Assembly: GCA_965657915.1 (NCBI GenBank)
Contig: CBFHPN010000006.1
Span: 3,057-67,056, forward strand
DNA length: 64,000 bases
Direction: 5' to 3'
Origin: Acholeplasmataceae bacterium
GTDB taxonomy: Bacteria; Bacillota_I; Bacilli_A; Acholeplasmatales; Acholeplasmataceae
The number at the start of each line of letters is the position of its first letter. The stretch's first letter is position 1. Position numbers and translations under genes: made by a program. Below the pieces are notes generated by a model, which searched no databases, was not told where the DNA came from, and saw only the letters and a program-made list of their open reading frames with translations. This document shows positions 8,701 to 36,400 of this stretch, in pieces.

Positions 8701-8747
8701 ATTTTCGTGAAAGTTACGTATGTTTTTATAATTACATGGAGGCATTT

Positions 8748-10902: not shown

Positions 10903-10913
10903 AGGAGAAAGAC

Positions 10914-11483: not shown

Positions 11484-11505
11484 TGCTTAAGGAGGAAAAC
11501 AACAT

Positions 11506-15779: not shown

Positions 15780-15811
15780 AAGATGCACATCGTAATGTGC
15801 ATCTTTTTTTA
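15775..15811. terminator. bidirectional intrinsic terminator
   Basis: agatgcacat-cgta-atgtgcatct flanked by A- and T-runs, between the convergent ALDH and ldh genes. Confidence 0.8.
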
Positions 15812-18219: not shown

Positions 18220-18227
18220 GCTTCCTC

Positions 18228-18815: not shown

Positions 18816-18834
18816 AAAGACCTCAGTTAAACAT

Positions 18835-18843
18835 ATTATAACA
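18835..18843 (-). promoter_or_regulatory. extended -10 (TGTTATAAT on the minus strand) for the ICMT-like/crtP/ldh operon
   Basis: The reverse complement of attataaca is exactly TGnTATAAT, about 20 nt upstream of the gene start. Confidence 0.45.
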
Positions 18844-18912
18844 TGTGAATGGATGAAAACGGTATCGCATTAGAAGGATTTATATTTTATGATAATTTAT
18901 GGATTTAATCTA

Positions 18913-18921
18913 TGCTATAAT
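18913..18921 (+). promoter_or_regulatory. extended -10 (TGCTATAAT) for the M48 protease gene
   Basis: Exact TGnTATAAT 20 nt upstream of ATG 18941. Confidence 0.45.
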
Positions 18922-18940
18922 ATTAAAAATTAGGAGATTT

Positions 18941-20227: not shown

Positions 20228-20257
20228 TGTGTTATGTTATACTACACATGTAATACA

Positions 20258-20365
20258 ATCTTCAGGGCAGGGTGCAATTCCCGATCGGCGGTAAAGTCCG
20301 CGAGCCTACGGGCAGGATTTGGTGAAATTCCAAAACCGACAGTATAGTCTGGATGGGAGAAGATA
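20258..20365 (+). promoter_or_regulatory. FMN riboswitch (RFN element)
   Basis: CUUCAGGGCAGGGUGCAAUUCCCGAUCGGCGGUAAAGUCCGCGAGC...GGAUUUGGUGAAAUUCCAAAACCGACAGUAUAGUCUGGAUGGGAGAAG matches the RFN consensus. TATACT -10 at 20238..20243. Confidence 0.9.
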
Positions 20366-20395
20366 TGGTTTTTTAACCTTATTTTTTACTTTACT

Positions 20396-21511: not shown

Positions 21512-22123
21512 ATGTTTACAGGAATTATTCAAGATGTCGGAACAATCACATCGATAAAAAAAGGATCTAACTCTCAACAAATCACCATCGAAACATCCAT
21601 TTTAGAAGATGTTCACATTGGGGATTCGATTGCAGCCAATGGGCTATGCCTTACAGTCACGACGTTAAAAGATACCACCTATACAGTCGATGTAATGGCA
21701 GAATCACTAAGAAGATCTAATTTAGGAAGTTTAGACGTCGGATCAAAGGTAAATCTAGAAAAAGCGATGGCAATGGGAGATCGCTTTGGAGGTCATATGG
21801 TTTCTGGTCATATCGATGATGTCGGTACCATTTCAAAAACGTTTGTTGAAGATAATGCGACATGGGTGGACATTGATGTACCGGATCATTTAAGAAAATA
21901 TTGTATTTTAAAGGGATCCATCGCGATTGATGGGATTAGTTTAACAATTTCAAGATTAACTGATAAAGGCGTTTCTGTTTCTATTATCCCGCATACAAAA
22001 GACCAAACAACGCTACTATCTAAAAAAATAGGCGATCATGTCAATTTAGAAATGGACATGATGATTAAATACGTTGAAAAGTTATTACAACCGACTAAAG
22101 AAAATTTAACAAAGGAGAAATGA
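21512..22123 (+). CDS. ribE: riboflavin synthase (alpha chain)
   Basis: [11 protein letters not shown]-terminus and an internal duplicated barrel (NGLCLTV / DGISLTI). Confidence 0.9.
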
Positions 22124-22127
22124 GAAG

Positions 22128-23339
22128 ATGATGGCGATTAAACTTAATACCATTGAAGACGCAATCTTAGATATTCAATTAGGTAAGATGGTCATTGTCG
22201 TTGATGATGAAGATCGAGAAAATGAAGGTGATCTTGTCATGGCAGCAGAAAAAGTGAGACCTGAAGATGTCAATTTTATGGCGACTTATGGTAAAGGACT
22301 CATTTGTGTTCCACTCAAAGAATCAAACGCTCAAAAACTAGGTTTAGATGAAATGGTTAAAAAAAATACCGATGTGTTTAGAACGAATTTTACAATATCA
22401 GTTGATGCAATCGATACAACAACAGGTATATCTGCAAAAGAACGCGCACATACAATTCAAATGTTGGTTCATGATAAAGCGACTGATCGAGACTTTAGAA
22501 AGCCTGGACATATCTTTCCCCTCATTGCTCAAGAAGGTGGTGTATTAAAACGTGCTGGCCATACTGAAGCAAGTATTGATCTTGCATTACTTGCTGGATT
22601 AAAACCTGTTGGTGTCATTTGTGAAATTATGAATGATGATGGATCCATGGCAAGACTTGACGATTTAATGATGTATAAAGAAAAACATCAATTGAAAATC
22701 ATTTCAATTCAAGATTTAATCGAATATAAAAGAAAAAAAGAAACCTATATTACACGTTCAGCAAGTGCAGTGATGCCAACCATTTCGGGTGAATTTGAAA
22801 TGGTTGGGTATGAAAATATATTAAATAAAGAACATCACGTTGCACTTGTAAAAGGTGATGTTAAAGGTAAAGAAGATGTTTTAGTAAGAGTACACTCTGA
22901 GTGTTTAACGGGAGATGCATTTGGATCTTTACGTTGTGATTGTGGAGATCAACTTCATGCAGCGATGCATACGATTGAAGAAGAGGGATTAGGCATTGTT
23001 TTATACATGAGACAAGAAGGCAGAGGGATTGGGTTAATTAATAAAATTAAAGCATACCATCTTCAAGATCAAGGGTATGATACCGTTGAAGCTAATTTAA
23101 AATTAGGCTTTAAAGATGATTTAAGAGATTATGGTATTGGTGCACAGATTTTAGCGGATTTAGGCGTGAAATCGATAAGATTAATGACGAACAATCCAAG
23201 AAAAATCGTTGGACTAGAAGGCTATGGCATTAAAATTTCTGACCGAGTATCCATTCAAATGAATCATAATGAAAGAAATGAATTTTATTTAAAAACAAAA
23301 AAACAAAAACTTGGGCATATGCTCGACATAAAGGAGTAG
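22128..23339 (+). CDS. ribBA: bifunctional 3,4-dihydroxy-2-butanone-4-phosphate synthase / GTP cyclohydrolase II
   Basis: [12 protein letters not shown] (DHBP synthase) and [19 protein letters not shown] (GCH II zinc site). Confidence 0.9.
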
Positions 23340-23341
23340 AG

Positions 23342-23803
23342 ATGAAAACAATTGAAGGAAATTACATGGGTAAAGGTTTAAAAGTTGCGATCGTGATGAG
23401 TCGTTTTAATGAGATGATTGTTAAACAACTTGTTGAAGGTGCAAAAGATGGTTTAATCAGACACGGTGTTGATGAAAAAGACATCACAGTTGTTGCAGTA
23501 CCTGGTGCATATGAAATTCCACTGGCAGTTAAAAAAGTGGCAGAATTACAATCATATGATGCGATTATTGCATGCGGTGCAGTCATCCGTGGTGCAACCC
23601 CACACTTTGATATGGTTGCTAACGAAGTAACGGGTGGTATTGCGAAAGTTTCTCTTGAAAGTGGTGTCCCAGTCATTAACGCAGTTCTCACAACTGATTC
23701 TATTGAACAAGCAATTGAACGCGCTGGAACAAAAGCAGGAAACAAAGGATTCGATGCAGCTTTATCAGCCATAGAAATGGTAAATGTCATAAATAATCTA
23801 TAA
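23342..23803 (+). CDS. ribH: 6,7-dimethyl-8-ribityllumazine synthase
   Basis: [10 protein letters not shown]...VPGAYEIP...[12 protein letters not shown]. Confidence 0.9.
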
Positions 23804-23831
23804 AAAAACGTTGCTTAGGCAACGTTTTTCT
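23804..23831. terminator. bidirectional intrinsic terminator
   Basis: aaaaaa-acgttgc-ttag-gcaacgt-ttttt between convergent genes. Confidence 0.75.
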
Positions 23832-24567
23832 TTTGAAATTTATAAAGTAACACATACATTAAACTCATCACAAATGCTCCTAGAAGCGTTGTTAAAGATA
23901 AATAAACAAAATTAAATTTAAAAAAATCAAATAAAATAAGTTCATGTCCCCATTCAAAAAATAATTCAAGAGGGGTTCCATTTTCAGGCTTTAAGCTATA
24001 AAAATAATTTGCATATTGACCCGATATGAGATATAAAATATTATTCATTATTATTGATAATATAAATAATATAAAGACAACAATAAACGTTTTTTTAAGA
24101 TAATGAAAATCAAGTTTGATAAAGCCTTTAAAATAAGCCCATAGTGGTAATGTCACTAAAATCATGTGTCCGAAAATATATGCAAAACCTCTAAAGGTTA
24201 GTATAGTGTCATAGTGACTTAAGCTATTTGCGAAAATAATAGAAACAAATGCAGCTGGCAAATTCAAAATAAGTGCAAAATTAAACCAAATTTGTTGTTT
24301 TTTTAAGAAAGCAATCAATAATACAAAATTCGCAAAATGACATATTTGTAAAGGTAATAACTCGATATCAAAATTAAGACCATTAGTAATAAATATTTCT
24401 AAATTTCTTGAAAACAAAATGACAATTGCAACAATACTTAACCAAATGCCAATTTTAGTATTGGTTTCATCATTAGTGTTTTTTGTAAAATATAATAAAA
24501 TAAATAGTGAGATAAACGGAGACACTACAAATAGTAAATGACCGATAGAATACATTTCAAATGTCAT
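23815..24567 (-). CDS. polytopic membrane protein, possibly YwaF/TIGR02206-like (function unknown)
   Basis: 250 aa with about 7 TM segments and an LPLQICHFANF motif. Family assignment is from memory only. Confidence 0.35.
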   Translation of the reverse strand: MTFEMYSIGHLLFVVSPFISLFILLYFTKNTNDETNTKIGIWLSIVAIVILFSRNLEIFITNGLNFDIELLPLQICHFANFVLLIAFLKKQQIWFNFALILNLPAAFVSIIFANSLSHYDTILTFRGFAYIFGHMILVTLPLWAYFKGFIKLDFHYLKKTFIVVFILFILSIIMNNILYLISGQYANYFYSLKPENGTPLELFFEWGHELILFDFFKFNFVYLSLTTLLGAFVMSLMYVLLYKFQKKNVA

Positions 24568-24647: not shown

Positions 24648-26108
24648 CTAAGATATTTTTTCAATGTGTAGTTTTGAGTTAATTAAGTGGCTTTCTTTAG
24701 TATCTTCATCCATTTTATTTAATAAGTTAACCATCATGGACATTCTAGGGTTAGATTTTAAAGTATCTTTATGTTTGTCTATGAAATTCCAATACAAACC
24801 GTTAAACGGACAAGCCTTTTCACCAGTTTTTATGGTTGGATCGTATTTACAACCCTCACAATAGTTACTCATTTTCTTTATATAAGACGCACCAGATATA
24901 TATGGTTTTGTTGACATTAAGCCACCATCAGCATATAACCCCATTCCCATAACATTAGGTGTGACAACCCAATCAAATGAATCAATATATAGGCTATTAA
25001 ACCAATCATTGACTTCAATCGGGTTGACACCTATAAGATTCGCATAATTGGATAAAATCATAAGTCTTTGAATATGATGGTTATATCCATTTTCTAAAGT
25101 TTCTTCAATGGTATGTGATAAACAGGATAAATCTGTATTTGCACTCCAATAAAAAGCAGGTAAAGAGTGGTGATGTTTTAAAGCGTTTTTGTCATGATAA
25201 TCCGGTGTATTTAAATACACGCCACGGATATATTCCCGCCAACCAAGAACTTGTCTGATGAAGCCTTCAGCAGGTTGAATTTCACAGACGCCATCATGAT
25301 ACGCTTGTTCGACTGCTTTAATCACATCCATGGGACTAAGTAGACCTAAATTCAAAGAAGAAGAAATAAGCGCATGCGACATGAAAGGCTCATGTTTAAT
25401 CATGACATCTTGATGATCACCAAACGTTGAAAGTCTGTAGTCAATAAAATGTTTGAGTGCTTGATTTGCTTGAGCGTGAGAAACAGGATAAATAAACGTA
25501 TCCAAATTACCTGGATGATCACTAAATAAAGCGTTTGTCCAATCAATTGATTGTTGCGTTAAAACATCGATTTCAAAGGTTAAAGGTTCATGAAAACGCA
25601 ATCCCTTTTTAAAGGGTTTCCTATTATCCCCGTCAAAGGAAAATTTACCGCCAATAGGTAAATCATGATGCATTAAAATTTGATGTTTGTGTCGAAGCTT
25701 TCTGTATATTGTATCCATTTTCCATGGTTGTTTAGAAAGTAAAACTTTCCATTCATCTCTCGATACGATAAATAATGGATCATCAACATATGTAACATTC
25801 GTTAATGGTTTTATAAAGTTAAAATCAGCGTAATCATTAGGTAAAAATACATACGTTTGTGCGTGATTGTATGTCTCATAGAATGTATTTAAATCTTCAA
25901 TCAAAAGGTAACTCAAAGGATATGTTTTTTGATATGTGTCAATAAAATGTAGTATTGCACTATGATGAAGTGCAATTCTTTTTTTATGATATAGATGTCT
26001 CTTATAAAAAGATAGATGCTCAAATACAATAATTTCATCAAATTCAATATTGAGATGATTAATATAGGTTTGATTCAGTTGAAATGGAAACAATAATAAA
26101 GTTTTCAT
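24648..26108 (-). CDS. FeS-cluster cryptochrome/photolyase family protein (FeS-BCP; CryB/PhrB (6-4)-photolyase-like)
   Basis: HHIQRLMILSNYANL..VNDWF..YIDSFDWVVTPNVMGM..ADGG..KPYISGASYIKKMSNYCEGCKYD...KACPFNGLYWNF parallels R. sphaeroides CryB as I recall it. Four Cys (SCLSH, CEGC, ACPF) fit the 4Fe-4S ligands. Confidence 0.8.
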   Translation of the reverse strand: MKTLLLFPFQLNQTYINHLNIEFDEIIVFEHLSFYKRHLYHKKRIALHHSAILHFIDTYQKTYPLSYLLIEDLNTFYETYNHAQTYVFLPNDYADFNFIKPLTNVTYVDDPLFIVSRDEWKVLLSKQPWKMDTIYRKLRHKHQILMHHDLPIGGKFSFDGDNRKPFKKGLRFHEPLTFEIDVLTQQSIDWTNALFSDHPGNLDTFIYPVSHAQANQALKHFIDYRLSTFGDHQDVMIKHEPFMSHALISSSLNLGLLSPMDVIKAVEQAYHDGVCEIQPAEGFIRQVLGWREYIRGVYLNTPDYHDKNALKHHHSLPAFYWSANTDLSCLSHTIEETLENGYNHHIQRLMILSNYANLIGVNPIEVNDWFNSLYIDSFDWVVTPNVMGMGLYADGGLMSTKPYISGASYIKKMSNYCEGCKYDPTIKTGEKACPFNGLYWNFIDKHKDTLKSNPRMSMMVNLLNKMDEDTKESHLINSKLHIEKIS

Positions 26109-27463
26109 GAGCGGCTCACTTTTTTTACAGGTTTAGGATAGTTTTGAATACCATATAAAATACGTTCTTTTTCTGAGAATTCACTTATTTTATATTTTAA
26201 TGGATTCGGAACATCTTTTATTTCGGGTAAAAAAACATCTAAAAATTGACAGTTTGTATCATAACGTTCTCCTTGCGTGATGTAGTTAAACATTCTATTT
26301 TCTCGAGGATCATTTCCTAGCCCTGCGTTATAGAGCCAATTGAGGGTATTAGAAGAAACGTCATAATCAATCAAATAAGATTCAAAAAATGCAGCACCGA
26401 TACGCCAATCTTGATTTAAAAATTTCGTTAAAAAATTAGCAACATTTTGTCTTCCTCTATTCGACATATATCCAGTTTGAACAAGTTGCCTCATATTTGC
26501 ATCAATGAGTGGATACCCTGTTTTTCCCTCTTTCCATGCTGTAATAAAGTATTGATTAGGAGAAATATGATGTGATTGTGACAACCCTGCTTGATTGAAA
26601 ATACGATTGTGATATTTTTTGTGAGTAAAATAAAAGTAATCACGCCATAGTAACTCAAAATAAATCCAATAAGTCGAATCATTTTTAACATAAGTTGCTT
26701 CATACTTTTTAACCTCATTCATAATACGATTAACAGATAATGCACCCATTGAGAGATAAGCTGAAAATTTCGTGGAATCATTAAAATTCAACATACCATT
26801 ACGAGTTTCTTTGTATGTTTTTGCAAGTTGATCATTAAATAAATAATTTGTTAAATGGTTTAATGCTGCAGTTTCACCAGGTTGGATGTAGTGATTGATT
26901 TGTAAAATATTCAGATCATCTAAATTCGGAATATCGCTTTCTATAGATATTTTTGGTTGTTGAACTAAAGTGTCACACTCTTTAAAATTAACAGGAAATC
27001 GTTCGATTTTATGTCTAAATTGTGTAAAAACAAATGGCAAATCTTCTATTGAAAAAGGCAGCATATGTGTTTTGTAAAGTGGTTTCATTTCCTCATGATA
27101 GGTCGGTATGTTTAAGGTGGAAATGAAATCATATCTTTTTCTTTCCTCCTCACCAGGTAGTTTTTCAAAATATATAGATTCTATATTAAGTTCTCTAATC
27201 AATTCTTTTAATATAAAAGCAAAGTCCCCTTTTTTTACAAGAAGCGGAATATTCAATGTATTCAGTTGCTGATTTAAATCGAGCAATGTATCATATAAAA
27301 AAGACAACCAAGGATCACTTTTCTTTTTGAACCCAAAATTATTGAGATTAAACCAAGCTTCATCAAATACAAAAAGTCCCACTACTGAACCACTTTCCAG
27401 TGCTTTTTTCAGCAAAGGTTGATCATGGATTCGCAAATCATTTTGAAAGAGGTAAAGGTTCAT
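26105..27463 (-). CDS. DASH-type cryptochrome
   Basis: MNLYLFQNDLRIHDQPLL N-terminus; TGYPLIDANMRQL; GYMSNRGRQNVANFL; DYDVSSNTLNW. ATGA-coupled to the downstream FeS-BCP gene. Confidence 0.8.
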   Translation of the reverse strand: MNLYLFQNDLRIHDQPLLKKALESGSVVGLFVFDEAWFNLNNFGFKKKSDPWLSFLYDTLLDLNQQLNTLNIPLLVKKGDFAFILKELIRELNIESIYFEKLPGEEERKRYDFISTLNIPTYHEEMKPLYKTHMLPFSIEDLPFVFTQFRHKIERFPVNFKECDTLVQQPKISIESDIPNLDDLNILQINHYIQPGETAALNHLTNYLFNDQLAKTYKETRNGMLNFNDSTKFSAYLSMGALSVNRIMNEVKKYEATYVKNDSTYWIYFELLWRDYFYFTHKKYHNRIFNQAGLSQSHHISPNQYFITAWKEGKTGYPLIDANMRQLVQTGYMSNRGRQNVANFLTKFLNQDWRIGAAFFESYLIDYDVSSNTLNWLYNAGLGNDPRENRMFNYITQGERYDTNCQFLDVFLPEIKDVPNPLKYKISEFSEKERILYGIQNYPKPVKKVSRS

Positions 27464-27474
27464 ATAAACTCCTA

Positions 27475-27483
27475 TGTTATAAT
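27475..27483 (+). promoter_or_regulatory. extended -10 (TGTTATAAT) placed 7 nt before the arcA ATG (leaderless mRNA predicted)
   Basis: TGnTATAAT ends at 27483 and the ATG is at 27490. There is no SD in between. Confidence 0.5.
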
Positions 27484-27489
27484 CATACT

Positions 27490-28641
27490 ATGATAGTAAA
27501 ACACGATACAGATCCATTACAAGTTGTATTGGTTCATCAACCAGGTAAAGAAATTGAACAACTCATGCCAGGTAATCTTACAAGATTACTTTTTGATGAT
27601 GTTCCTTTTTTAGATCAAGCCATTCAAGAACATCAAACCATGACGGATTACCTAATACAACATCATGTTCAAGTTCATGATATTACCGAACTTGCTATTG
27701 AAGTCATACAAGATGATCGTCTTAAAGATGAACTTATTAATATCATCATACACGATTTAAAGCAACAATCACAATCTGTGGTAGAACGTGTGAGAAAAAA
27801 ACTTAAAGCATCTTCTTTAGAATCGATTGTGAATACGTATGTTGGGGGACTGACGTATATGGAATTAGATTTAGATAATAAAAAGACGCTTTTTATTTTA
27901 GATCCGCTTCCCAATTTATTATTTCAAAGAGATCCAATGTTTATGATTCATGACATATGCGTGATTAGTCATATGAACATGGAAGCAAGAAGAAGAGAAG
28001 CAATGCTATCAAAGTTTATCATTAAACATCACCCACTATTTATGCATCAACGCATGATTGACATGTCTGATCAAAAACATTCTATTGAAGGTGGGGATAT
28101 CATACTATTGGATGATTATATCTTGATTGGTATTTCAGAACGGACAACAAAAGAAGCTGCAATAGAATTAATCAAACGATTAAAAGCATTTGATTTATCA
28201 TATCAAACGATACTCATAGAATTACCAAATCATCGCAGTTATATGCATTTAGATACTGTCATCACCCCCATTAAAAAAGATGTATTTGTCTATGATAAAC
28301 ATGCATTTGAAAATAGCCTCTTGTATCAATTAGTCAACGATGAGATGGAAATCATTCATACGTCATTTGAGGTATTGATGAAGCAACAATTTGGTGATAT
28401 TTCATTTATTGAAGTAGGGGATGGTGATCAAATTTATGCAAAGAGAGAACAGTGGAATGATGCTGCAAATACATTAGCCATCGCGCCTAATCATATTATT
28501 TGTTACGATAGAAATGTGATTACAAATGAACTATTTAAATCACATGGAGTAACGTACTTTTCTATGCCGTCTTCTGAGTTATCTAGAGGACGTGGTGGTC
28601 CGCATTGTATGACCATGCCACTTTATAGAAAAAGCCTCTAA
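27490..28641 (+). CDS. arcA: arginine deiminase
   Basis: ORF track 27400..28641, but its first 30 codons are antisense to cry-DASH. From ATG 27490: VVLVHQPGKEIEQLMPGNLTRLLFDDVPFLDQAIQEH (ArcA N-terminus). C-terminal GGPHCMTMPL holds the catalytic Cys. Confidence 0.85.
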   Translation: MIVKHDTDPLQVVLVHQPGKEIEQLMPGNLTRLLFDDVPFLDQAIQEHQTMTDYLIQHHVQVHDITELAIEVIQDDRLKDELINIIIHDLKQQSQSVVERVRKKLKASSLESIVNTYVGGLTYMELDLDNKKTLFILDPLPNLLFQRDPMFMIHDICVISHMNMEARRREAMLSKFIIKHHPLFMHQRMIDMSDQKHSIEGGDIILLDDYILIGISERTTKEAAIELIKRLKAFDLSYQTILIELPNHRSYMHLDTVITPIKKDVFVYDKHAFENSLLYQLVNDEMEIIHTSFEVLMKQQFGDISFIEVGDGDQIYAKREQWNDAANTLAIAPNHIICYDRNVITNELFKSHGVTYFSMPSSELSRGRGGPHCMTMPLYRKSL

Positions 28642-29606
28642 CGAGGCTTTAGCATGATTTCAATCCCAGAAGCAACGCCTTCATCTTCATAGATGAGGGT
28701 GTTTTTTTTATATAGTTTTAAATGAATGTTTCCAGATAGACCTTCTTTGATGGTTTCATTCATTTGACCTAATCGAGGAGAAGGTAAATCTTTATAGTCT
28801 GATGTTGTCGCGGTCACAACTAATTTTAAAGTGCGTTTTTTGAGTGTTATTGAAACTGAAGTATCATCATAAGTAATATGTTTAACAGCACTTAAATTAT
28901 AAGTCGCAAAACGGTACTCTCTGCCTTCTATTACTAAAACACAGATTAATCCTTTAAATTTAAAAAATAAAAAAGGGATGGTTGCATAAGATAACATAAA
29001 TGATGTTTTAGGATCTTTAAAATGATTCGATTGCATCCAAGTATAACTACTAGGAAAAGATGTACCCCAGTCTTTTTCGATATAACCCTTTCCATGATTA
29101 AAGGAAATGGCTTCTTTCTCAAGTAAAATTGAACCTTTTACTTGATGAGACATCGAGACGATGCCGTGATAGGTTTCCATAAAACCTAAATATCCAAACG
29201 GTCCCATAATGGATGGAAAAATTAAGCTTTTTTTAATTGGCGTAAGGTGCTGATTTTCTAAATGAACTTGCAAATCTAATTCTTCATTATCGATTGAAAA
29301 AAACATGGATTCACTAGAAAATATGTTGTGTGCAATTTGAATCTTAAATATCTTTGGATGGAAAGAGAAGTCTTTAATATCATATTTGAAATAATATGTT
29401 TTCAATGTTTCATTCTCTTTTGTTCGATCAGAAATAAAAACTTGAATAAAGGCATGTGTATCATGTTTATTTAAACTAATTCCTGGTATAAAGGCAAAGG
29501 TATGAGACAAATTTTTTGTTACATACTTAAAATACCAACCTTCAAAGTAGTTTTTTTTCTTTAAATGTCCTTGAAATATTTCGGGGTGAAATGTCTTATA
29601 AAACAT
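28638..29606 (-). CDS. tocopherol-cyclase family (PF14249-like) protein
   Basis: YFEGWYFKYV and GYIEKDWGTSFPSSYTWMQSN parallel the plant VTE1 motifs FFEGWYFRV and SEKNWGGGFPRKWFWVQCN (recalled). 322 aa, apparently soluble. Confidence 0.65.
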   Translation of the reverse strand: MFYKTFHPEIFQGHLKKKNYFEGWYFKYVTKNLSHTFAFIPGISLNKHDTHAFIQVFISDRTKENETLKTYYFKYDIKDFSFHPKIFKIQIAHNIFSSESMFFSIDNEELDLQVHLENQHLTPIKKSLIFPSIMGPFGYLGFMETYHGIVSMSHQVKGSILLEKEAISFNHGKGYIEKDWGTSFPSSYTWMQSNHFKDPKTSFMLSYATIPFLFFKFKGLICVLVIEGREYRFATYNLSAVKHITYDDTSVSITLKKRTLKLVVTATTSDYKDLPSPRLGQMNETIKEGLSGNIHLKLYKKNTLIYEDEGVASGIEIMLKPR

Positions 29607-29615
29607 GATTTTCTC

Positions 29616-29645
29616 CTAAAAAAAAGACTAAGTTTCCTTAGTCTT
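29616..29645 (-). terminator. intrinsic terminator immediately after the heliorhodopsin gene
   Basis: Minus-strand RNA agacuaag-gaaa-cuuagucu followed by U8. Confidence 0.75.
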
Positions 29646-29654
29646 TAGTATAGC
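29646..29654 (-). promoter_or_regulatory. extended -10 (TGCTATACT, minus strand) for the tocopherol-cyclase-like gene, abutting the terminator
   Basis: The reverse complement of agtatagca is TGCTATACT. The predicted start site lies inside the first hairpin arm. Confidence 0.4.
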
Positions 29655-29659
29655 ATATC

Positions 29660-30487
29660 TTATGAAGGTTGGAATGCTCCAAATAGAACTAGCCATGTAA
29701 GTAATGTTTTAGCGACAAGAGATAAGATGACATAACCTCTTTCTCCATATAAGTAATCTTTAAATTTACCTATTCCAGCATATTGTAAGTACATGTTTAC
29801 TGGGAATGTATTAAATGCAATAAAGTAAGTTGCTAAGATTGCCCAAACGAATCCAGGAACATTTTCTAAATTAGGGTTCACACCAATATAGAATGCGATG
29901 GCAACCCATGGTGCAAGACCTACGATTGAACCAAAGATAAATGGTAGCCAATTGACTTTTTTACCAACTTTAGACTCACCTTGGTTAAGTAATTCCATAT
30001 CTAAACCAAAGAAGTTCATCGCTGCATTTGCAAGTGCGATTAGTGCGAATACAGCAACATCTCTCACACCAAATAATGATGAAATTAAGATAATCATGAG
30101 TGATGAAGATAATGCATATTCATACCATCTAAATTTGTTAATACCAACTTTTAAACCTGCACGGTATTCATCTTTCCAAACAAATGCAATTAAAAAGTGG
30201 AAGATACCAGAAATAAGTAAGAAACTCGCTGTCATTTGTAAGAACGGTAATTCAAATAAGGTATCAGTGTTCGTTAAGATTAATCCTTCTCCTTGAACAA
30301 ATTCTAAGTAATTCCCAATCACTGGGATGGTAAATGCACCTTGACTTGTCATACTTGGGTAAATGAAGAATGCAAAAATCATCATAAATAACCCTTGAAC
30401 TAAATGGACAACACCCATTTTTTTATTAAATGAGATGAGTTTATCAATTTTCACATCAACATTTAATGTTTGAACTTCTGTAGACAT
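29660..30487 (-). CDS. heliorhodopsin
   Basis: ORF track 29660..30541. I prefer ATG 30487 after AAAGGAGA. Motifs VVHLVQG, IFHFLIAF, FRWYEYALSSSLMIILIS and LYGERGYVILSLVAKTLLTW match heliorhodopsin 48C12 (VFHLLQM, LFHFIVS, FRWVEYSLSSSVMIVLIA, LRGERAYIVLSLVAKSALAW). This includes the Schiff-base Lys, the Glu counterion and both His positions. Confidence 0.85.
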   Translation of the reverse strand: MSTEVQTLNVDVKIDKLISFNKKMGVVHLVQGLFMMIFAFFIYPSMTSQGAFTIPVIGNYLEFVQGEGLILTNTDTLFELPFLQMTASFLLISGIFHFLIAFVWKDEYRAGLKVGINKFRWYEYALSSSLMIILISSLFGVRDVAVFALIALANAAMNFFGLDMELLNQGESKVGKKVNWLPFIFGSIVGLAPWVAIAFYIGVNPNLENVPGFVWAILATYFIAFNTFPVNMYLQYAGIGKFKDYLYGERGYVILSLVAKTLLTWLVLFGAFQPS

Positions 30488-30519
30488 AATAATCTCCTTT
30501 ATATTATGATTATGCCTTG

Positions 30520-30528
30520 AGTATATCA
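30520..30528 (-). promoter_or_regulatory. extended -10 (TGATATACT, minus strand) for the heliorhodopsin gene
   Basis: The reverse complement of agtatatca is TGATATACT, about 33 nt upstream of ATG 30487. Confidence 0.4.
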
Positions 30529-30564
30529 CACAATCTATCACGATGTTAGAGAATCTTTTTGTTA

Positions 30565-30573
30565 TGGTAAAAT
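30565..30573 (+). promoter_or_regulatory. extended -10 (TGGTAAAAT) for crtN-crtM-phr
   Basis: TGnTAAAAT 22 nt upstream of ATG 30595. Confidence 0.4.
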
Positions 30574-30594
30574 ATGGAAGAAAATAAGGTGAAT

Positions 30595-32085
30595 ATGAAA
30601 AAAGTCATTATCATAGGTGCTGGCACAGCTGGGCTATCTTCAGCAATTAGACTTCAATCAAAAGGATTCCAAGTTGAAATCTATGAAAAAAACGACCGTG
30701 TTGGCGGTCGTATGTTTCAACTTAAAGACAAAGGGTTTACCTTTGATTATGGTCCGACCATTACGATGTTACCTGATGAATATAAAGATGTATTTATCGC
30801 TTCAGGTGTGAATCCAGATGATTATTTACAGATGACAGCACTTGATCCACTTTATAAATTATACTTTAGAGATGGAACATCATTTCAAGTATCTTCAAAT
30901 TTAAATCAATTGATGAAAGAACTGGAAAAATTCGGTGAAGATGAAGCATATGGATATTTATCATATTTATCTGATGTATACGGACGCTATATCATTGCAA
31001 AAAAACATTTTTTAGATGTTTCATATCGAAGAAAAAGAGATTTTTTTAATTTAAAAACACCTTATCATGGGTACCGTTTAAAAACACTTAACAATGCATA
31101 TGATTCTATTTCAAGATTTGTTAAAAATGAAAAACTAAGACAAGCATTATCGTTTCAAACGTTATATATTGGTGTTTCTCCATTTCAAGGTCCATCCATT
31201 TATACCATCATCCCGATGATAGAATTACTTTATGGGATTCATTACATTAAGGGTGGGATGTATCAAATGGCTACTGCCATGGAAAAACGTTTTTTAGAGC
31301 TTGGTGGAAAAATTCATTTGAATCAATCTGTTGATGAAATCATGATTAAAGATCAAATTGCACAAGGGATAAGAATTAATGATGATATCAAAGAAGCAGA
31401 TATCATTTTAACGAATGCAGATTTTCCTTGGGCTGTTGAAAACTTAATTAAAGAACCTAAAAATAGAGGGAAATTTAAAGATAAAAAAGTTAAAAAAATG
31501 ACATATTCATCTTCAGTATTCATTATGTATATGGGACTTGATAAAAAGTATCCCACGGATATCCATTCATTAAGATTTGCTGCAGATTTCAAGAAAAATA
31601 TTCATGATTTATTTGAGTCAAAAATACCTGAAGACCCATCATTTTATTTATATTCACCCTCTCAAATTGATGAAAGTGTTGCACCTAAAGGAAAAGAAAT
31701 TTTATATGTTTTAGTACCTGTTCCTAATACACAAGATAAACATGTCAACTGGGATGAAGCACAGGTGACGTATTATCAATCTAAAATTTTATCAATGATC
31801 GAACAAATCCCAACGTTTCATGATATTAGAGAACATATTGAAGTCATGCATGTCTCAACGCCAAATACATGGGAAGAAAAATTTAATTTAAATCACGGTG
31901 CAACGTTTGGACTTCGTCCTACCTTGAGCCAAAGTTTATACTTTAGACCGCAAGCAACATTAAAACCTTTAAAAAATGTTTACTTCACAGGATCATCAAC
32001 GCATCCTGGTCCTGGCGTTCCAATTGTTTTAAAATCAGCAAAACTTGCTGTCAATGAAATACTAAAGGATCATCCGCATGAATGA
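30595..32085 (+). CDS. crtN: 4,4'-diapophytoene desaturase-like (CrtN type) phytoene desaturase family protein
   Basis: ORF track 30574..32085. I prefer ATG 30595 (MKKVIIIGAGTAGL). GGRMFQLKDKGFTFDYGPTITMLPDEYKDVF, FQTLYIGVSPFQGPSIYTIIPMIE and GSSTHPGPGVPIVLKSAKL track S. aureus CrtN as recalled. Confidence 0.8.
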   Translation: MKKVIIIGAGTAGLSSAIRLQSKGFQVEIYEKNDRVGGRMFQLKDKGFTFDYGPTITMLPDEYKDVFIASGVNPDDYLQMTALDPLYKLYFRDGTSFQVSSNLNQLMKELEKFGEDEAYGYLSYLSDVYGRYIIAKKHFLDVSYRRKRDFFNLKTPYHGYRLKTLNNAYDSISRFVKNEKLRQALSFQTLYIGVSPFQGPSIYTIIPMIELLYGIHYIKGGMYQMATAMEKRFLELGGKIHLNQSVDEIMIKDQIAQGIRINDDIKEADIILTNADFPWAVENLIKEPKNRGKFKDKKVKKMTYSSSVFIMYMGLDKKYPTDIHSLRFAADFKKNIHDLFESKIPEDPSFYLYSPSQIDESVAPKGKEILYVLVPVPNTQDKHVNWDEAQVTYYQSKILSMIEQIPTFHDIREHIEVMHVSTPNTWEEKFNLNHGATFGLRPTLSQSLYFRPQATLKPLKNVYFTGSSTHPGPGVPIVLKSAKLAVNEILKDHPHE

Positions 32086-32995
32086 TTGGTTTACGTTCAG
32101 TTTATTGATATTTGCGGGTGTCGTCGTTTTCTTACTTACGTTGATTTACTTAAGAGAGAGACGTCTTATTAAGTACTGCGAACAGATCATTAAAAAAAAT
32201 TCACTCACCTTTTATAAAGCTTTTTCAAAAATTGAAAACAAAAAGCAGAGACAAGCCATTTACGTTGTTTATGCTTTTTGTCGTTATGCAGATGATTTAA
32301 TTGATGAACACCAAGATATTGAGGGTCTAAACCAATTAGAACTAGAACTAGAAGCATTTAAAAATCATAAAAAGACCTCACTAAAAGTATTTAAAGCTTT
32401 GAGTCTCATCAAAGATCAGTTTTATGGTGAAAATTATGACTATCAACCATACTTTGAAATGATCCAAGGTCAAAGGATGGATATCACCATCGCTTCGTAT
32501 GAAACCATGGATGATGTTTTAGCGTATTGTTATTATGTAGCGTCTTCAGTAGGTCTGATGTTACTTCCGATTTTAGCACCGAGTAAACATCAGGAATTAA
32601 AAGAATTCGCAATACAACTTGGATATGCGATGCAAATCACTAATTTCTTACGGGATGTTGGAGAAGATTATCTCAAAGGAAGAATTTATATTCCTCAAGC
32701 CGATTTGAAAAAGTTTCAAGTCGATCTTGACCATGAGTTCAAGATGGGTCCAACAGACTCATTTAAAACACTATTTAATCATTTAGCAACGCAAGCAAGA
32801 CAATACTATCAATACGCATATGATCATATGGAAGCATTTAGTCAAGATGTAAGAACACCATTACTTTATGCAGCTAAATTATATGAAGCCATCCTTGATG
32901 AGTGTATGACAGATTATGATGTATTTACGAAAAAGCATTTTGTTTCTCATGCTAAAAAAATAGATATCATTAAAGGACTTCAAAAAAATCTTTAA
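32078..32995 (+). CDS. crtM: squalene/phytoene synthase family, CrtM-like (4,4'-diapophytoene synthase type)
   Basis: 8-nt overlap with crtN. YAFCRYADDLID and NFLRDVGEDY are the two Asp-rich motifs. Has an N-terminal TM helix. Confidence 0.8.
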   Translation: MNDWFTFSLLIFAGVVVFLLTLIYLRERRLIKYCEQIIKKNSLTFYKAFSKIENKKQRQAIYVVYAFCRYADDLIDEHQDIEGLNQLELELEAFKNHKKTSLKVFKALSLIKDQFYGENYDYQPYFEMIQGQRMDITIASYETMDDVLAYCYYVASSVGLMLLPILAPSKHQELKEFAIQLGYAMQITNFLRDVGEDYLKGRIYIPQADLKKFQVDLDHEFKMGPTDSFKTLFNHLATQARQYYQYAYDHMEAFSQDVRTPLLYAAKLYEAILDECMTDYDVFTKKHFVSHAKKIDIIKGLQKNL

Positions 32996-33015
32996 ACACA
33001 TACGTTGGAGTGTAT

Positions 33016-34386
33016 ATGAATACAAATAGAATCAAAGTTATTCAAGAAGTCACCAATCACAATCAGCATAAAATCTTATATTGGATGCAAAGTGCGCAAC
33101 GCATCCATTATAATCATGCACTTAATCATGCGATTGAACTTGCTAACAAACACAAAAAAGAACTGCACGTGATGTTTAATATTATACCTTCTTATAAAGA
33201 TGCAAATCGTAGACACTATATGTTTATGTTAGAGGGAATCAAAGAGTTAGAACGAACATTTTTAGAACTTAAAATACCGTTTAAAGTAACCTTTGGACTC
33301 CCTGATGAAAACATTTCAAAACACTTAAATGATGATGATATATTAATCCTTGATAAAGCATACTTAAAACAACCACGACAATGGAGAAACGCTTTATATC
33401 AACGTATTAAAGGTAAAAATACCATTATTGAAATTGATACCGAACTGATTGTTCCTGTGGAACATGCATCTAGTAAAATGGAATACGGGGCATATACCAT
33501 ACGTCCTAAACTTCATAAACTTTTTGATGTCTTTAATGATCATGACGTGTTGCCGGCATATAAAGGTCCATATCAAAAACTTACTTCAGATGTAGAACTA
33601 AATGATTTAGATGCTTTTATAGAAACACTTCCTATTGATCAATCCGTGATTGAGACATCTTTATTTAAAGGTGGATATGGCGAAGCAGTTCAAAGACTTC
33701 AAACATTTATTCAATTTAAAGCAAAAGATTATTTAGAAAGAAATGCACCGGGTGAACAAGTGACGTCTACACTTTCGCCTTATTTGCATTTTGGTCAAAT
33801 ATCGTCACTTGAAATCGTTCACGCCATTCAACACGCTAAAGATGAAGGGATGATCAATCAAGAGACCTTTGATGGTATTTTTGAACAAGTGTTTGTGAGA
33901 AGAGAACTTGCCTTTAATTTTGTCTATTATAATCAAAACTACGATCAATTTGACTATATAACAGAACCTTGGGCATACAAAACGATGCAAGAACATCAAG
34001 ATGACTTTAGACCTTTCATTTATTCAAAAGAAACGTTAGAATCTTCCCAGACTCACGATCCATATTTCAATGCTGCCATGGATGAAATGAAAGTGAGTGG
34101 CTATATGCATAATTATATGCGCATGTATTGGGCTAAAAAAATTATTGAATGGTCAAATTCATATCAAGAAGCATATGAAACGACCTTATATTTAAATAAT
34201 AAATACTTCTTAGATGGTAGAGATCCAAATTCATATACGAGTGTTGCATGGAATTATGGTCGTCATGATCGTGCATGGAATGAAAGAACCATCTTAGGTA
34301 AATTGCGTTACATGAATGATAAAGGATTAGAAAGAAAGTTTGACATGAAGAAATACATCAACTATGTTGAAAGTATAAAAAAATAA
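33016..34386 (+). CDS. class II CPD photolyase
   Basis: ORF track 33010..34386; ATG 33016 lies 5 nt after GGAG. ILYWMQSAQRIHYNHAL, SPYLHFGQIS, GYMHNYMRMYWAKKIIEW, DGRDPNSYTSVAWNYGRHDRAW, LRYMN..GLERKFD. Confidence 0.85.
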   Translation: MNTNRIKVIQEVTNHNQHKILYWMQSAQRIHYNHALNHAIELANKHKKELHVMFNIIPSYKDANRRHYMFMLEGIKELERTFLELKIPFKVTFGLPDENISKHLNDDDILILDKAYLKQPRQWRNALYQRIKGKNTIIEIDTELIVPVEHASSKMEYGAYTIRPKLHKLFDVFNDHDVLPAYKGPYQKLTSDVELNDLDAFIETLPIDQSVIETSLFKGGYGEAVQRLQTFIQFKAKDYLERNAPGEQVTSTLSPYLHFGQISSLEIVHAIQHAKDEGMINQETFDGIFEQVFVRRELAFNFVYYNQNYDQFDYITEPWAYKTMQEHQDDFRPFIYSKETLESSQTHDPYFNAAMDEMKVSGYMHNYMRMYWAKKIIEWSNSYQEAYETTLYLNNKYFLDGRDPNSYTSVAWNYGRHDRAWNERTILGKLRYMNDKGLERKFDMKKYINYVESIKK

Positions 34387-34409
34387 GACCTCAAGGTCTT
34401 ATTTTTTTA
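34378..34409. terminator. bidirectional intrinsic terminator
   Basis: aaaaaa-taagacc-tcaa-ggtctta-ttttttt between convergent genes. Confidence 0.75.
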
Positions 34410-35178
34410 ATTTTGGGAAGAAAATGGGTGTATGCTTAGCATATTCTTGATACAGTGCGTTATCTTGATATCTTTTTTCAAGTAAGGGTACACCAGATAC
34501 ATATCTAAGAAGATATCCCATTATCAGTGTGCCAATAATTGCAAAAGCATAATGTAAATCAAAACTATAAAACATAATGACAAAATAACTCATCCAAATC
34601 ATAAAGTCACCAAAGTAGTTCGGATGTCTGGTGTAAGCCCATAACCCTTTATCCATGATTTTCCCCTTATTATTTGGGTTCGACTTAAAGCGCTTAAGTT
34701 GAGCATCTGATACACTTTCAAAGATAAAGCCAATGATAAATAAGACAATCCCTAACCCTAACACCACATAATGAAACCATTCTAAACCTTCTTTGACATA
34801 AAAGACACTTTGAAGGGGCAATGAAATTACAAATGCAAGTAATATCTGGAGATAAAAGACTTTAAAGTAAGCATGAACATAAGGAATATTTCCCCATTTT
34901 TTTCTCATGTTGACATAACGGTAATCTTCAGGTTTAGACCAGTTACGTAACAATAAATAGTAAGTGAGTCTTAATCCCCATAAAGTAACAAAACTTAGTA
35001 TCGAAATAGAAGCGAGGGTAACTACGTCTGTATATAGAAAGACGGTCCAAGTGATCACAACAAAGCTTAGTCCCCAAGCAATGTCAATCAGTCCTAGATT
35101 TTTCTTGATGACACTGATTAAAAACCAAACATGTAAATAAATAAAAAGAACACTTGCTAAAACAATCAAATGTGTCAT
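34399..35178 (-). CDS. DUF1295 family membrane protein (steroid-reductase/ICMT-like fold)
   Basis: ORF track 34399..35238. ATG 35178 forms an ATGA overlap with the upstream gene. GLWAYTRHPNYFGDFMIW motif. Confidence 0.65.
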   Translation of the reverse strand: MTHLIVLASVLFIYLHVWFLISVIKKNLGLIDIAWGLSFVVITWTVFLYTDVVTLASISILSFVTLWGLRLTYYLLLRNWSKPEDYRYVNMRKKWGNIPYVHAYFKVFYLQILLAFVISLPLQSVFYVKEGLEWFHYVVLGLGIVLFIIGFIFESVSDAQLKRFKSNPNNKGKIMDKGLWAYTRHPNYFGDFMIWMSYFVIMFYSFDLHYAFAIIGTLIMGYLLRYVSGVPLLEKRYQDNALYQEYAKHTPIFFPKLKK

Positions 35179-35567
35179 AAAAGATGACCAATTAAATAGG
35201 TGAGTGTGGAGACAGAAAATCCTAAAAATGTTCCCCATGTGATATCTATGAGTGTGACTTTAATCGGCCACTTATCAAGGGTTGCTAAGTTTGTTAAGTC
35301 GTATGTTGCATACGTAATGAAACCATAAAGTCCACCATAAAGCATGGCATGATTCAGTGACATAGCATCTAAGGCTGGAACAATTGCAAAAATCATTAAA
35401 AAGATAATATACAAAACATAAAAAACAAGCGCAGCATACCAATTTGGTTTTTTCGCTAAAATATAACCAATTTGTGTTTGGTACATCTTTTTAGCAAATA
35501 GACCTAACCATAAAATGTCAATGATAAAAAAGATGATAAATGCAATGAGAAAAATTAATATGTTCAT
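35175..35567 (-). CDS. DUF2177 family membrane protein
   Basis: FIIDILWLGLFAKKMY...YATYDLTNLATLDKWP, the characteristic DUF2177 pattern as recalled. 130 aa with 4 TM segments. Confidence 0.6.
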   Translation of the reverse strand: MNILIFLIAFIIFFIIDILWLGLFAKKMYQTQIGYILAKKPNWYAALVFYVLYIIFLMIFAIVPALDAMSLNHAMLYGGLYGFITYATYDLTNLATLDKWPIKVTLIDITWGTFLGFSVSTLTYLIGHLL

Positions 35568-36400
35568 GATGTCTCCTTTGTTGAAACTACAATGTGATCA
35601 AATGGAATTTCTATGTGTAAAGCTTTTAACTGATCTAAAATAAATTGTCTCAAGTCTCGTTCAACACTAAATTGTGTATTCGGTTTTGTTTGACATGTTA
35701 ATGTCATTTCAATCCCAGAAGCTAAAAATTGAGTCACACCTAAAACTAAAGCATTAGAAATGACATCATCATGGTTAGATTTAAAGTTGACTAAGGCTTC
35801 ATTTAAACTTGATGACATGGTTTTAATATCCGTTTCATATGGCACTGAAAATGTAATAATTGCTTGCGAGTAAAATCTAGAGAAGTTAATGACTGGACTC
35901 ATTTGACTATTAGAAAAAATTTGGATGTGACCTGTCCAATGTTGTAATGTTGTTGATTTTAAACCGAGTTCTAAAACAGTGCCTCTAAAACCCTTCACTT
36001 CGACAACATCTCCAATATCATAGTGGTTTTCAAACACAATAAAAAATCCTGCAATCATATCTTGAATCATACGCTGTGCACCAAGACCAATCACAAGGCC
36101 TACAATGCCAAGACCAGCAATGGCTGGAATCACATCGACGCCCCAAATGGATAAAATCACTAAAATAGCGATGATAAAAACAGTATATCTGAGTAAACTA
36201 AAAAGAAGTTTGGATAGTGTTTTAAAGCGCGTCACTTGTTTTTGTTTTGATTCAGCATGTCTTAAATATCGTTTAATCAAAGATTGAACTAAAAGAAGTC
36301 CTAAAAAAGAGACAATGACAATTAAAACTGTAAAAAAGATATTAGCAAAAATAGGATCATTTATGAGATCTTCATATAATTCTGAAAAGAAAGTAAGCAT
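35564..36400 (-). CDS. small-conductance mechanosensitive channel (MscS family)
   Basis: 3 TM segments followed by IQDMIAGFFIVFENHYDIGDVVEVKGFRGTVLELGLKSTTLQ. Confidence 0.85.
   Translation of the reverse strand: MLTFFSELYEDLINDPIFANIFFTVLIVIVSFLGLLLVQSLIKRYLRHAESKQKQVTRFKTLSKLLFSLLRYTVFIIAILVILSIWGVDVIPAIAGLGIVGLVIGLGAQRMIQDMIAGFFIVFENHYDIGDVVEVKGFRGTVLELGLKSTTLQHWTGHIQIFSNSQMSPVINFSRFYSQAIITFSVPYETDIKTMSSSLNEALVNFKSNHDDVISNALVLGVTQFLASGIEMTLTCQTKPNTQFSVERDLRQFILDQLKALHIEIPFDHIVVSTKETS

Follow-up and report, generated by a model that had tools for sequence, protein, structure and literature searches.

The function of heliorhodopsins (HeRs) has been open since 2018, and in the few cases tested the HeR binds and tunes a protein encoded beside it. 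TfHeR of Trichococcus flocculiformis binds and enhances the class II cyclobutane pyrimidine dimer (CPD) photolyase of the same operon, and HeR-photolyase operons have been found in 12 genera (Shim et al. 2022, PMC9769723). Surveys of gene neighbourhoods have placed DNA photolyase, tocopherol cyclase, DUF2177, DegV and DUF1295 genes near HeRs, in a sample with Firmicutes including Tenericutes (Chazan et al. 2021, 10.1101/2021.02.16.431466), and have counted photolyase and DUF2177 among ten groups of HeR neighbours (Cho et al. 2024, PMC11109279). The Znf-HeRs, for their part, are flanked by carotenoid genes (phytoene desaturase, SQS_PSY) and photolyases, an arrangement that has been read as photoprotection combined with ultraviolet (UV) repair (Bulzu et al. 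2021, PMC8612252). Here, we analyse the surroundings of a HeR gene in a 64-kb stretch of DNA from an Acholeplasmataceae bacterium (GenBank assembly GCA_965657915.1, contig CBFHPN010000006.1), hereafter the window, whose open reading frames (ORFs) were listed and then scanned against Pfam (most ORFs of at least 100 aa) and NCBIfam. The HeR gene sits in a block together with genes for three classes of photolyase, a carotenoid operon, a gene of the Tocopherol_cycl family (TocCyc) and an operon for MscS, DUF2177 and DUF1295 proteins.

Like the TfHeR-TfPHR system, the window has a HeR encoded by a class II CPD photolyase in a monoderm member of the Bacillota. Unlike in Trichococcus, the photolyase ends a divergent crtN-crtM-phrII operon and is not co-directional with the HeR gene, DUF2238 is missing, and the window adds photolyases of two more classes, together with a TocCyc-like gene, carotenoid genes and a DUF2177-DUF1295 pair; in addition, binding and a boost of repair were measured for TfHeR-TfPHR, whereas for the window they are proposed by analogy. 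The published functional link between a HeR and a photolyase, to which a first-pass annotation of this DNA had appealed, is real and concerns the same class of enzyme as here, class II CPD (PMC9769723). With the Znf-HeR neighbourhoods the window shares a HeR flanked by a desaturase, an SQS_PSY synthase and photolyases, but its HeR has no zinc-finger extension, lycopene cyclase and UvdE genes are absent, and the host lineage is a different one.

Bacterial light and singlet-oxygen regulons, such as sigmaE-ChrR of Rhodobacter and LitR/CarH, include photolyase and lipid-modifying DUF genes. Genes for DUF2177, DUF1295 and DUF1365 also appear in the expression table of a study of singlet-oxygen acclimation (sak1) in Chlamydomonas (PMC4067076). 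The window resembles the sigmaE-ChrR, LitR/CarH and SAK1 regulons in its photolyase, DUF1295, DUF2177 and carotenoid genes; this is a likeness of content only, and unlike them the window is centred on a HeR, and neither a sigma/anti-sigma pair nor a MerR/B12 regulator was found among its scanned ORFs.

Every individual association with a HeR that we describe is already published. We found no literature in which a HeR is connected by name with Acholeplasma, Izemoplasma or Peloplasma. The surveys of Chazan et al. and Cho et al. give family-level statistics, whereas the window holds a composite block that they do not describe. As far as we found, that block, the conserved HeR-terminator-TocCyc unit within it, the same-strand arrangement of HeR and TocCyc with Cry-DASH and FeS-BCP and the adjacent riboflavin (rib) operon are undescribed. 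DegV, a HeR neighbour in the surveys, is absent from the window and present in two relatives (loci L021 and L038; loci of relatives are given by such numbers). The locus is an unusually complete case of the known HeR-centred photoprotection neighbourhood, in Acholeplasmataceae/Izemoplasmatales-like bacteria. The co-localisation, which the first-pass annotation had considered unusually dense, is real and non-coincidental, but it is less unusual than that annotation thought, because the surveys already report photolyase, tocopherol cyclase, DUF2177, DUF1295 and carotenoid genes beside HeRs.

The explanation that we prefer, and hold with moderate confidence, is that this is a vertically inherited and selectively maintained neighbourhood for dealing with light damage in a wall-less, low-GC clade of Bacilli (Acholeplasmataceae/Izemoplasmatales-like) and not a mobile island. 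Judging by family membership, its enzymes would repair all main UV lesions, the class II photolyase acting on CPDs in duplex DNA, Cry-DASH on CPDs in single-stranded DNA and FeS-BCP on (6-4) photoproducts, while the riboswitch-controlled rib operon next door would supply flavin adenine dinucleotide and lumazine cofactors for these photolyases. The antenna of PhrB-type enzymes is 6,7-dimethyl-8-ribityllumazine. Membrane photoprotection in the wall-less cell would fall to CrtN/CrtM-type carotenoids, an AttH-fold isoprenoid cyclase/hydratase that carries the annotation 'tocopherol cyclase', and DUF2177-DUF1295-MscS; of these, the carotenoids, the TocCyc-like enzyme and DUF2177-DUF1295 may protect or remodel the cell's only barrier. 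HeR, by analogy with TfHeR-TfPHR, would be the central light-absorbing helper, which when illuminated contacts the class II photolyase and raises its activity, and it may also act on the adjacent lipid enzymes. The block, which we presume to be induced by light, would be transcribed from ordinary extended -10 promoters, with a terminator after HeR that would let HeR exceed the TocCyc-like enzyme.

Gene content of the block and its conservation in relatives

By ORF listing and by Pfam and NCBIfam matches, all genes named in the first-pass annotation are present, intact and where it had put them (Table 1), although it had passed over an arginine-deiminase (ADI)-family gene, and the end that it set for the island, 35567, cuts off MscS, a gene that it had itself placed in the last operon. 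The gene junctions, too, are as it had given them when read in the sequence: FeS-BCP and Cry-DASH are joined by an ATGA, the desaturase and synthase genes overlap by 8 nt and are followed after a 20-nt gap by the class II photolyase, the last gene of this crt-phr operon (ribosome-binding site, RBS, GGAG; ATG at 33016), and the divergent region between HeR and crtN measures 107 bp when the second ATG (30595) is taken as the crtN start. Convergent to the crt-phr operon runs an MscS-DUF2177-DUF1295 operon with 4-nt overlaps, the DUF2177/DUF1295 junction again being an ATGA. Between the convergent ends of phrII and DUF1295 lies a hairpin with an A-run and a T-run on its sides, which did not appear in the output of the terminator scan and which, from its sequence, is likely a bidirectional terminator.

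The three photolyase genes are clearly separable by family. The FeS-BCP protein matches PF04244 (DPRP) with 112 bits and the structures of PhrB (4dja) and CryB (3zxs) with 365 and 360 bits, respectively. Its cysteines align with the four that bind the [4Fe-4S] cluster in PhrB (5kcm/4dja), which we take to be C350, C438, C441 and C454 in PhrB numbering, and all four are conserved; on these sequence features it is assigned to the prokaryotic (6-4) photolyase family. Cry-DASH reaches 428 bits against TIGR02765 (cut-off 317), with 1np7 and 2j4d as the best solved structures. The class II photolyase scores 264-285 bits against 8oet, 2xry and 3umv, compared with 29 bits against class I structures, and matches TIGR00591 over its full length, at 463 bits and thus below the cut-off of 550.

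The HeR gene (RBS GGAG, protein beginning MSTEVQ) matches PF18761 with 270.8 bits (cut-off 26.7) and NF038020 with 251.6 bits (cut-off 100). In alignments with TaHeR (6is6) and 9vfc, the Schiff-base lysine in transmembrane helix 7 (SLVAKT) and the counter-ion glutamate in helix 3 (RWYEYAL) fall on the corresponding motifs.

A scan for HeRs, with one genome per species, yielded 55 HeR loci, the nearest of which come from metagenome-assembled genomes labelled Acholeplasmataceae, Bacillota, Bacilli and Izemoplasmatales. When all ORFs lying up to 7 kb from these HeRs were clustered de novo, the most frequent families were DUF1295 (8 loci), TocCyc (7), class II photolyase (7) and DUF2177 (7). The block is retained in full by L002 and L003, whose HeR is 94% identical (tblastn of the window proteins), and also by L006/L081, where HeR is 80% and its neighbours are 41-55% identical, the E1 subunits of pyruvate dehydrogenase (PDH) of L006 being 81-89% identical; it is nearly complete in L058 and L061 (HeR 75-76%). 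A smaller core, in which the class II photolyase gene (PhrII) is divergent from HeR-TocCyc, is found with HeRs of 51-87% identity in L004, L062 (Peloplasma aerotolerans), L063, L065-L067, L071, L072 and L132. The same families recur differently arranged in L021 and L038, in which HeR is divergent from a DegV/Dak2-DUF1295-PhrII-DUF2177 operon. HeR, TocCyc, Cry-DASH and FeS-BCP share one strand in L002 and L061, with gaps of 0-2 nt or overlaps after TocCyc, and a DUF2177-DUF1295 pair lies near HeR in ten loci (L002, L003, L005-L007, L021, L038, L061, L081, L085).

Because the block is kept in relatives whose neighbour proteins are only about 50% identical, the clustering is, on this comparison of sequences, not coincidental; the first-pass annotation had named a lack of synteny in every relative as the outcome that would make it so, and the block or its core is conserved. 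Across the loci of full or near-full synteny the neighbour proteins are 41-59% identical, CrtN being the exception with 72% in L058 and L061, whereas HeR is 75-80% identical between the window and L006/L081, L058 and L061. Since HeR is conserved there far above the other proteins of the block, on a par with PDH E1 subunits and RibBA, the sequences suggest that it is under strong constraint.

Several observations weigh against the explanation preferred here. HeR and class II photolyase lie in divergent units with crtN-crtM between them, whereas in Trichococcus they share an operon; no gene for retinal synthesis (blh or a carotenoid oxygenase) was found in the window; and across about 20 relatives no conserved palindrome or operator was found in the HeR-crtN region, its two -10 boxes alone being conserved. 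Izemoplasma-like HeRs (L009-L016, L053), at 74-78% identity, have no gene of the block within 10 kb, so that HeR cannot depend on any single neighbour; judging by these loci, the linkage was lost in that sub-clade. Some of the synteny may, moreover, be inherited gene order, since unrelated genes (arcA, arginine decarboxylase, MscS and PDH) are conserved alongside.

This last point could be extended to the entire arrangement, which would then be ancestral gene order, with a HeR that has no functional coupling to the rest. The conservation of arcA, speA/speB, MscS and PDH E1 in the same block fits such inertia, as does a neighbour-joining tree in which all carriers of the linkage fall into one HeR super-clade (HeR identity 51-100%). 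We nonetheless give it hardly any credence: the genes have stayed in order where their proteins have diverged to about 50% identity and the DNA around them has been reshuffled, these families are found again in other arrangements (L021, L038), light-related families are the top neighbours in unbiased counts, and the independent experiment in Trichococcus shows a functional interaction of HeR with a class II photolyase.

Table 1. Positions, strands and supporting matches of the features discussed, numbered along the 64-kb window.
Feature	Position	Strand	Basis
FMN riboswitch before rib operon	20254-20368	+	Rfam RF00050, 113.6 bits (gathering score 66.2)
ribD (probable)	20439-21509	+	inferred from L058 homologue with RibD domains
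ribE	21512-22123	+	Pfam Lum_binding
ribBA	22128-23339	+	Pfam DHBP_synthase and GTP_cyclohydro2
ribH (lumazine synthase)	23342-23803	+	Pfam DMRL_synthase
TMEM164-related membrane acyltransferase-like gene	23815-24567	-	PF14808, 67.8 bits; TIGR02206 below cut-off
FeS-BCP/DPRP	24648-26108	-	Pfam DPRP
Cry-DASH	26105-27463	-	NCBIfam TIGR02765
ADI-family gene, arcA-like	27490-28641	+	Pfam ADI, 277.9 bits
Tocopherol_cycl-family (TocCyc-like) gene	28638-29606	-	Pfam PF14249
Terminator-like hairpin and T-run, HeR/TocCyc gap	29623-29646	-	consensus scan
Heliorhodopsin (HeR), 275 aa	29660-30487	-	Pfam PF18761, NF038020
Divergent control region HeR/crtN	30488-30594	.	sequence, promoter scan
CrtI-family carotenoid desaturase (CrtN or CrtI)	30595-32085	+	TIGR02734
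SQS_PSY synthase, CrtM-like	32078-32995	+	Pfam SQS_PSY, 188.9 bits
Class II CPD photolyase (phrII)	33016-34386	+	TIGR00591, structure matches
Hairpin, A-run and T-run on its sides	34380-34408	.	direct sequence reading
DUF1295	34399-35178	-	Pfam
DUF2177	35175-35567	-	Pfam
MscS	35564-36400	-	Pfam

The tocopherol-cyclase-like protein as a second candidate partner

The TocCyc-like protein matches PF14249 with 60.8 bits (cut-off 26.6), the match being limited to residues 135-317, in the C-terminal half. By sequence, neither the protein nor its profile found a match in the PDB, and the fold search alone was informative: Foldseek with the AlphaFold2 model (predicted local distance difference test, pLDDT, 92.5) returned AttH (2ich, E 1e-10), fungal decalin-forming Diels-Alderases, kievitone hydratase and 25-phosphosteroid lyase. 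The model thus indicates an AttH/CrtC-type fold, which is typical of isoprenoid hydratases and cyclases and which in the literature includes the carotenoid 1,2-hydratase CrtC and the AttH hydratase of archaeal lipids. Like the AttH-fold enzymes (CrtC, kievitone hydratase, VTE1), the protein matches the Pfam Tocopherol_cycl model and its predicted structure superposes on AttH and kievitone hydratase; unlike plant and cyanobacterial VTE1, it matches the Pfam model by its C-terminal half only, and it is not accompanied by the rest of the tocopherol pathway (homogentisate prenyltransferase and the MPBQ and gamma-tocopherol methyltransferases), none of which was found in the Pfam-scanned ORFs of the window. 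The family is large, with more than 7,600 hits, and has E177, D179 and W180, in the motif EKDWG, as invariant positions; acidic and aromatic residues of this kind would suit an enzyme that protonates a prenyl double bond.

In four relatives two additional genes stand between crtM and phrII (L058 3164-4662, L061 3101-4595, L071 2043-3510, L132 2146-3607). The product of the first is a membrane protein, about 220-230 aa long, that weakly matches CTP_transf_1 (phytol/dolichol-kinase-like, VTE5-like), and that of the second a DUF92 protein of the VTE6 phytyl-phosphate kinase family. From their sequences, the VTE5-like, DUF92 and VTE1-like genes together look like a prenol-salvage route feeding the carotenoid synthase. 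A genuine tocopherol pathway, an idea raised by the VTE5-like and DUF92 genes of these relatives, was rejected, as neither prenyltransferase nor methyltransferases were seen and both genes are absent from the window. Elsewhere in the window (8736-12588, + strand) lies an NqrB-F-like operon with NQR2_RnfD_RnfE, FMN_bind, two Rnf-Nqr subunits and a Fer2-FAD-NAD subunit. It points to a quinone-reducing Na+-NQR, and hence to a membrane quinone in this wall-less lineage, which could be a substrate for a chromanol-forming cyclase.

In the gap between HeR and TocCyc, a hairpin with a stem of about 10 bp precedes a T-run, directly after which comes the TocCyc RBS (AGGAG). Hairpin and T-run recur at the same position in 21 of 21 distinct relatives when folded individually, with stems that differ in sequence (seen in L001-L007, L058, L061-L067, L071, L072, L081, L082, L084, L085 and L132). 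On an imperfect alignment, RNAalifold found 4 of 6 pairs to carry compensatory changes and gave a weak consensus; this weakness arises because MAFFT mis-registers stems of unequal length, and the individual folds are the better evidence. The conserved hairpin and T-run suggest that more HeR than TocCyc is probably made, the latter being expressed by read-through. In closer relatives an extended -10-like box (TGnTAnAnT) stands just upstream of the hairpin, and so an internal promoter, giving a transcript that starts with the hairpin, is also possible.

The pairing of the two genes was followed from the TocCyc side as well. A TocCyc-seeded search gave three homologues of 50-59% identity, one of them in the cultured Peloplasma aerotolerans, and all three have HeR directly upstream and a divergent photolyase. 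An alignment-based metagenome scan found 80 TocCyc loci, 54 of which were assessable; HeR is directly upstream in 11 of these 54, every one with a TocCyc of at least 46% identity and none more distant, and in unbiased counts PhrII and HeR are the top neighbours of the family.

HeR's partner may also be sought in the lipid machinery instead of the photolyase, be it the TocCyc-like AttH-fold enzyme, DUF2177-DUF1295 or both, with light driving a remodelling of membrane isoprenoids or fatty acids. Such a 'membrane lipid remodelling' hypothesis was put forward by Chazan et al. (10.1101/2021.02.16.431466), in whose survey DUF2177 and DegV are the most HeR-specific neighbours. In our loci TocCyc is the tightest neighbour of HeR, on the same strand at a gap of 42-60 bp, in every locus of the window-like clade and in most of the Peloplasma-like clade; L005, L007 and L085 retain HeR-TocCyc and DUF2177-DUF1295 with no photolyase nearby; and the AttH-type fold is common to kievitone (prenyl) hydratase and 25-phosphosteroid lyase and, in the literature, to CrtC and the archaeal-lipid hydratase. 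However, a terminator-like hairpin is conserved between the two genes, L068, L075 and L076 have PhrII and TocCyc without HeR, and TocCyc family members of 45% identity or less never have a HeR nearby, and we judge a lipid partner in place of the photolyase to be unlikely.

More specifically, HeR and the TocCyc-like protein might form a dedicated two-gene module in which lit HeR gates an AttH-fold isoprenoid cyclase or hydratase, a proposal that we put forward as distinctly improbable. The substrate would then be the neighbouring C30 carotenoid or a prenylquinol, and an antioxidant lipid, cyclised or hydrated, would be made solely when the cell is lit. If this were true, TocCyc would be the first HeR partner to act on membrane isoprenoids, and HeR gating would give the large bacterial 'tocopherol cyclase' family its first function.

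The carotenoid operon and the control of the block

Carotenoids are quenchers of singlet oxygen and, in Acholeplasma, reinforce the membrane. The desaturase of the block matches TIGR02734 (crtI_fam) with 433 bits (cut-off 238), its NCBIfam assignment going no further than this generic family, and its best solved structure is CrtI (4dgk). For the synthase, the best structures are the CrtM-type 8is6 and 5iys (194 bits), with Staphylococcus aureus CrtM at 127 bits, and the CrtB/HpnD matches in NCBIfam all fall below their cut-offs. In its gene order, desaturase then synthase with an overlap, the pair is like the crtNM operons known from lactic acid bacteria. The labels crtN and crtM (C30) are plausible on sequence grounds, since the synthase is closest to structures named CrtM, although the sequence does not decide between C30 and C40 (crtI/crtB).

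Two back-to-back extended -10 promoters are predicted in the divergent region, TGTGATATACT for HeR and TGGTAAAAT for crtN, and both are kept in relatives. The conserved -10 of TGGTAAAAT ends at 30573, which makes the first crtN ATG (30574) an unlikely start. A TATCAC-N6-TATCAC direct repeat in the window was considered as a regulator site and rejected, as it is not kept in relatives.

A shared divergent promoter region would be accounted for if the carotenoid operon served HeR, its CrtN/CrtM carotenoid being an antenna at the HeR fenestration or a precursor of a polyene chromophore. The crt genes are divergent from HeR here and in L001-L003, L006, L058, L061, L071, L081, L084 and L132, a carotenoid-binding fenestration is reported for 91% of HeRs (2025 preprint), and HeR genomes generally lack blh (10.1101/2021.02.16.431466), as does the window. 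Against such a service stand the loci that hold HeR, TocCyc and PhrII with no crt genes nearby (L004, L062, L063, L065-L067) and the lack of a cleavage oxygenase in the block; the same preprint favours exogenous ring-bearing xanthophylls, whereas the products of CrtN/CrtM are acyclic. Singlet-oxygen quenching and membrane reinforcement alone suffice to explain the crt genes, and we regard a carotenoid made for HeR as very unlikely.

Another carotenoid-type unit, within 14433-20179, is found 6.5 kb upstream of the block. Its CrtI-family paralogue (16738-18219), 27% identical to the desaturase of the block, precedes a membrane methyltransferase of the ICMT/PEMT type (18228-18815), and an aldehyde dehydrogenase is encoded close by (14433-15779). 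Divergent from the methyltransferase, a Ste24-like CAAX prenyl protease with a five-helix N-terminal domain is encoded at 18899-20179, a pairing of CAAX protease and ICMT reminiscent of eukaryotic prenyl-protein processing.

Domain scans agreed with the first-pass annotation that the block contains no recognisable regulator. Among the scanned ORFs of the window no LitR/CarH (MerR/B12-binding), two-component or sigma/anti-sigma domains were found, the regulator-like exceptions being two proteins, one of the Trp-repressor family and one with HAAS/DUF4097. Loci of the Peloplasma-like clade have, 3' of the class II photolyase gene and in its orientation, a gene for a multi-pass membrane GGDEF protein (diguanylate cyclase), in L062 (4267-5409) as well as in L063, L066, L067, L068, L075 and L076, being directly adjacent in most, which hints at a cyclic di-GMP output near HeR in that clade.

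A further idea is that HeR is the primary light sensor and turns on transcription of the block as a whole by way of an unlinked transducer or regulator. In its favour, HeRs have a slow photocycle of a sensory kind and in other phyla are found linked to two-component genes (PMC8612252), and a membrane GGDEF protein follows PhrII in six loci of the Peloplasma-like clade. Nevertheless, apart from the two exceptions above, the scanned ORFs yielded no transducer, kinase, sigma factor or DNA-binding regulator, no conserved operator was found, and the promoters, with their extended -10 boxes, look constitutive; we find a sensory HeR highly improbable and prefer its role as a photolyase helper.

Flanking genes and significance

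Lying between Cry-DASH and TocCyc, the ADI-family gene runs in the opposite direction to both and overlaps the 3' end of TocCyc by 4 nt. It falls below the NCBIfam cut-offs for arcA, and the 383-aa gene call is taken from L056. A TGTTATAAT box lies only about 6 nt 5' of its ATG, so near that the mRNA may be leaderless. Membership of the gene in the functional set was considered, since it is repeatedly met near HeR, and rejected: Peloplasma-type loci place an arcA-like gene in an arcA-arcB-arcC operon with ornithine transcarbamoylase and carbamate kinase, complete and in the same place, and neither of these two enzymes is encoded in the window. Distant TocCyc genes (L102, L116, L134) also seemed to have 'ADI' neighbours, but these were discarded, being 253-aa DDAH-like proteins about 4 kb off that were grouped with ADI solely through single-linkage clustering. 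The gene is most simply a passenger.

The rib operon stands beside FeS-BCP also in L002, L003, L006 and L058-L060. The TMEM164-related gene between them has its own promoter-like site (TTGAAA-17-TATAAT, 24626-24598) and is a variable member of the block, 62% identical in L058 and absent from L002 and L003. Genes for arginine decarboxylase, agmatinase and pyruvate dehydrogenase form the downstream flank. The flanks (PDH E1, arginine decarboxylase and rib) are syntenic in relatives and co-vary with the block, whose GC content, at 0.30-0.33, is near that of the flanks (0.33-0.39); the window yielded no tRNA genes, and its scanned ORFs neither an integrase nor a transposase, flanking repeats not having been searched for. 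On these grounds, synteny of the flanks included, a horizontally acquired mobile island was rejected. Further out, a lysine riboswitch (4995-5160, - strand, 88 bits) precedes an operon for an amino-acid ABC transporter (4977 down to 2613), and three consecutive ORFs of 204, 301 and 316 aa (47852-50318, - strand) have no Pfam match.

The lineage that carries this neighbourhood has tiny genomes and no cell wall, and at least one cultured organism, Peloplasma aerotolerans, has the core arrangement. Together with its relatives, the locus offers a compact and deeply conserved set of candidate HeR partners, namely three photolyase classes, an isoprenoid cyclase-like enzyme and DUF2177/DUF1295. It lets one ask whether the photolyase-helper role of HeR generalises, and the HeR-TocCyc pair, linked over HeR identities of 51-100%, allows the same question to be put for a second, lipid-directed role. 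The value of the locus thus lies less in surprise than in its being a well-defined, compact test system with a cultured relative.

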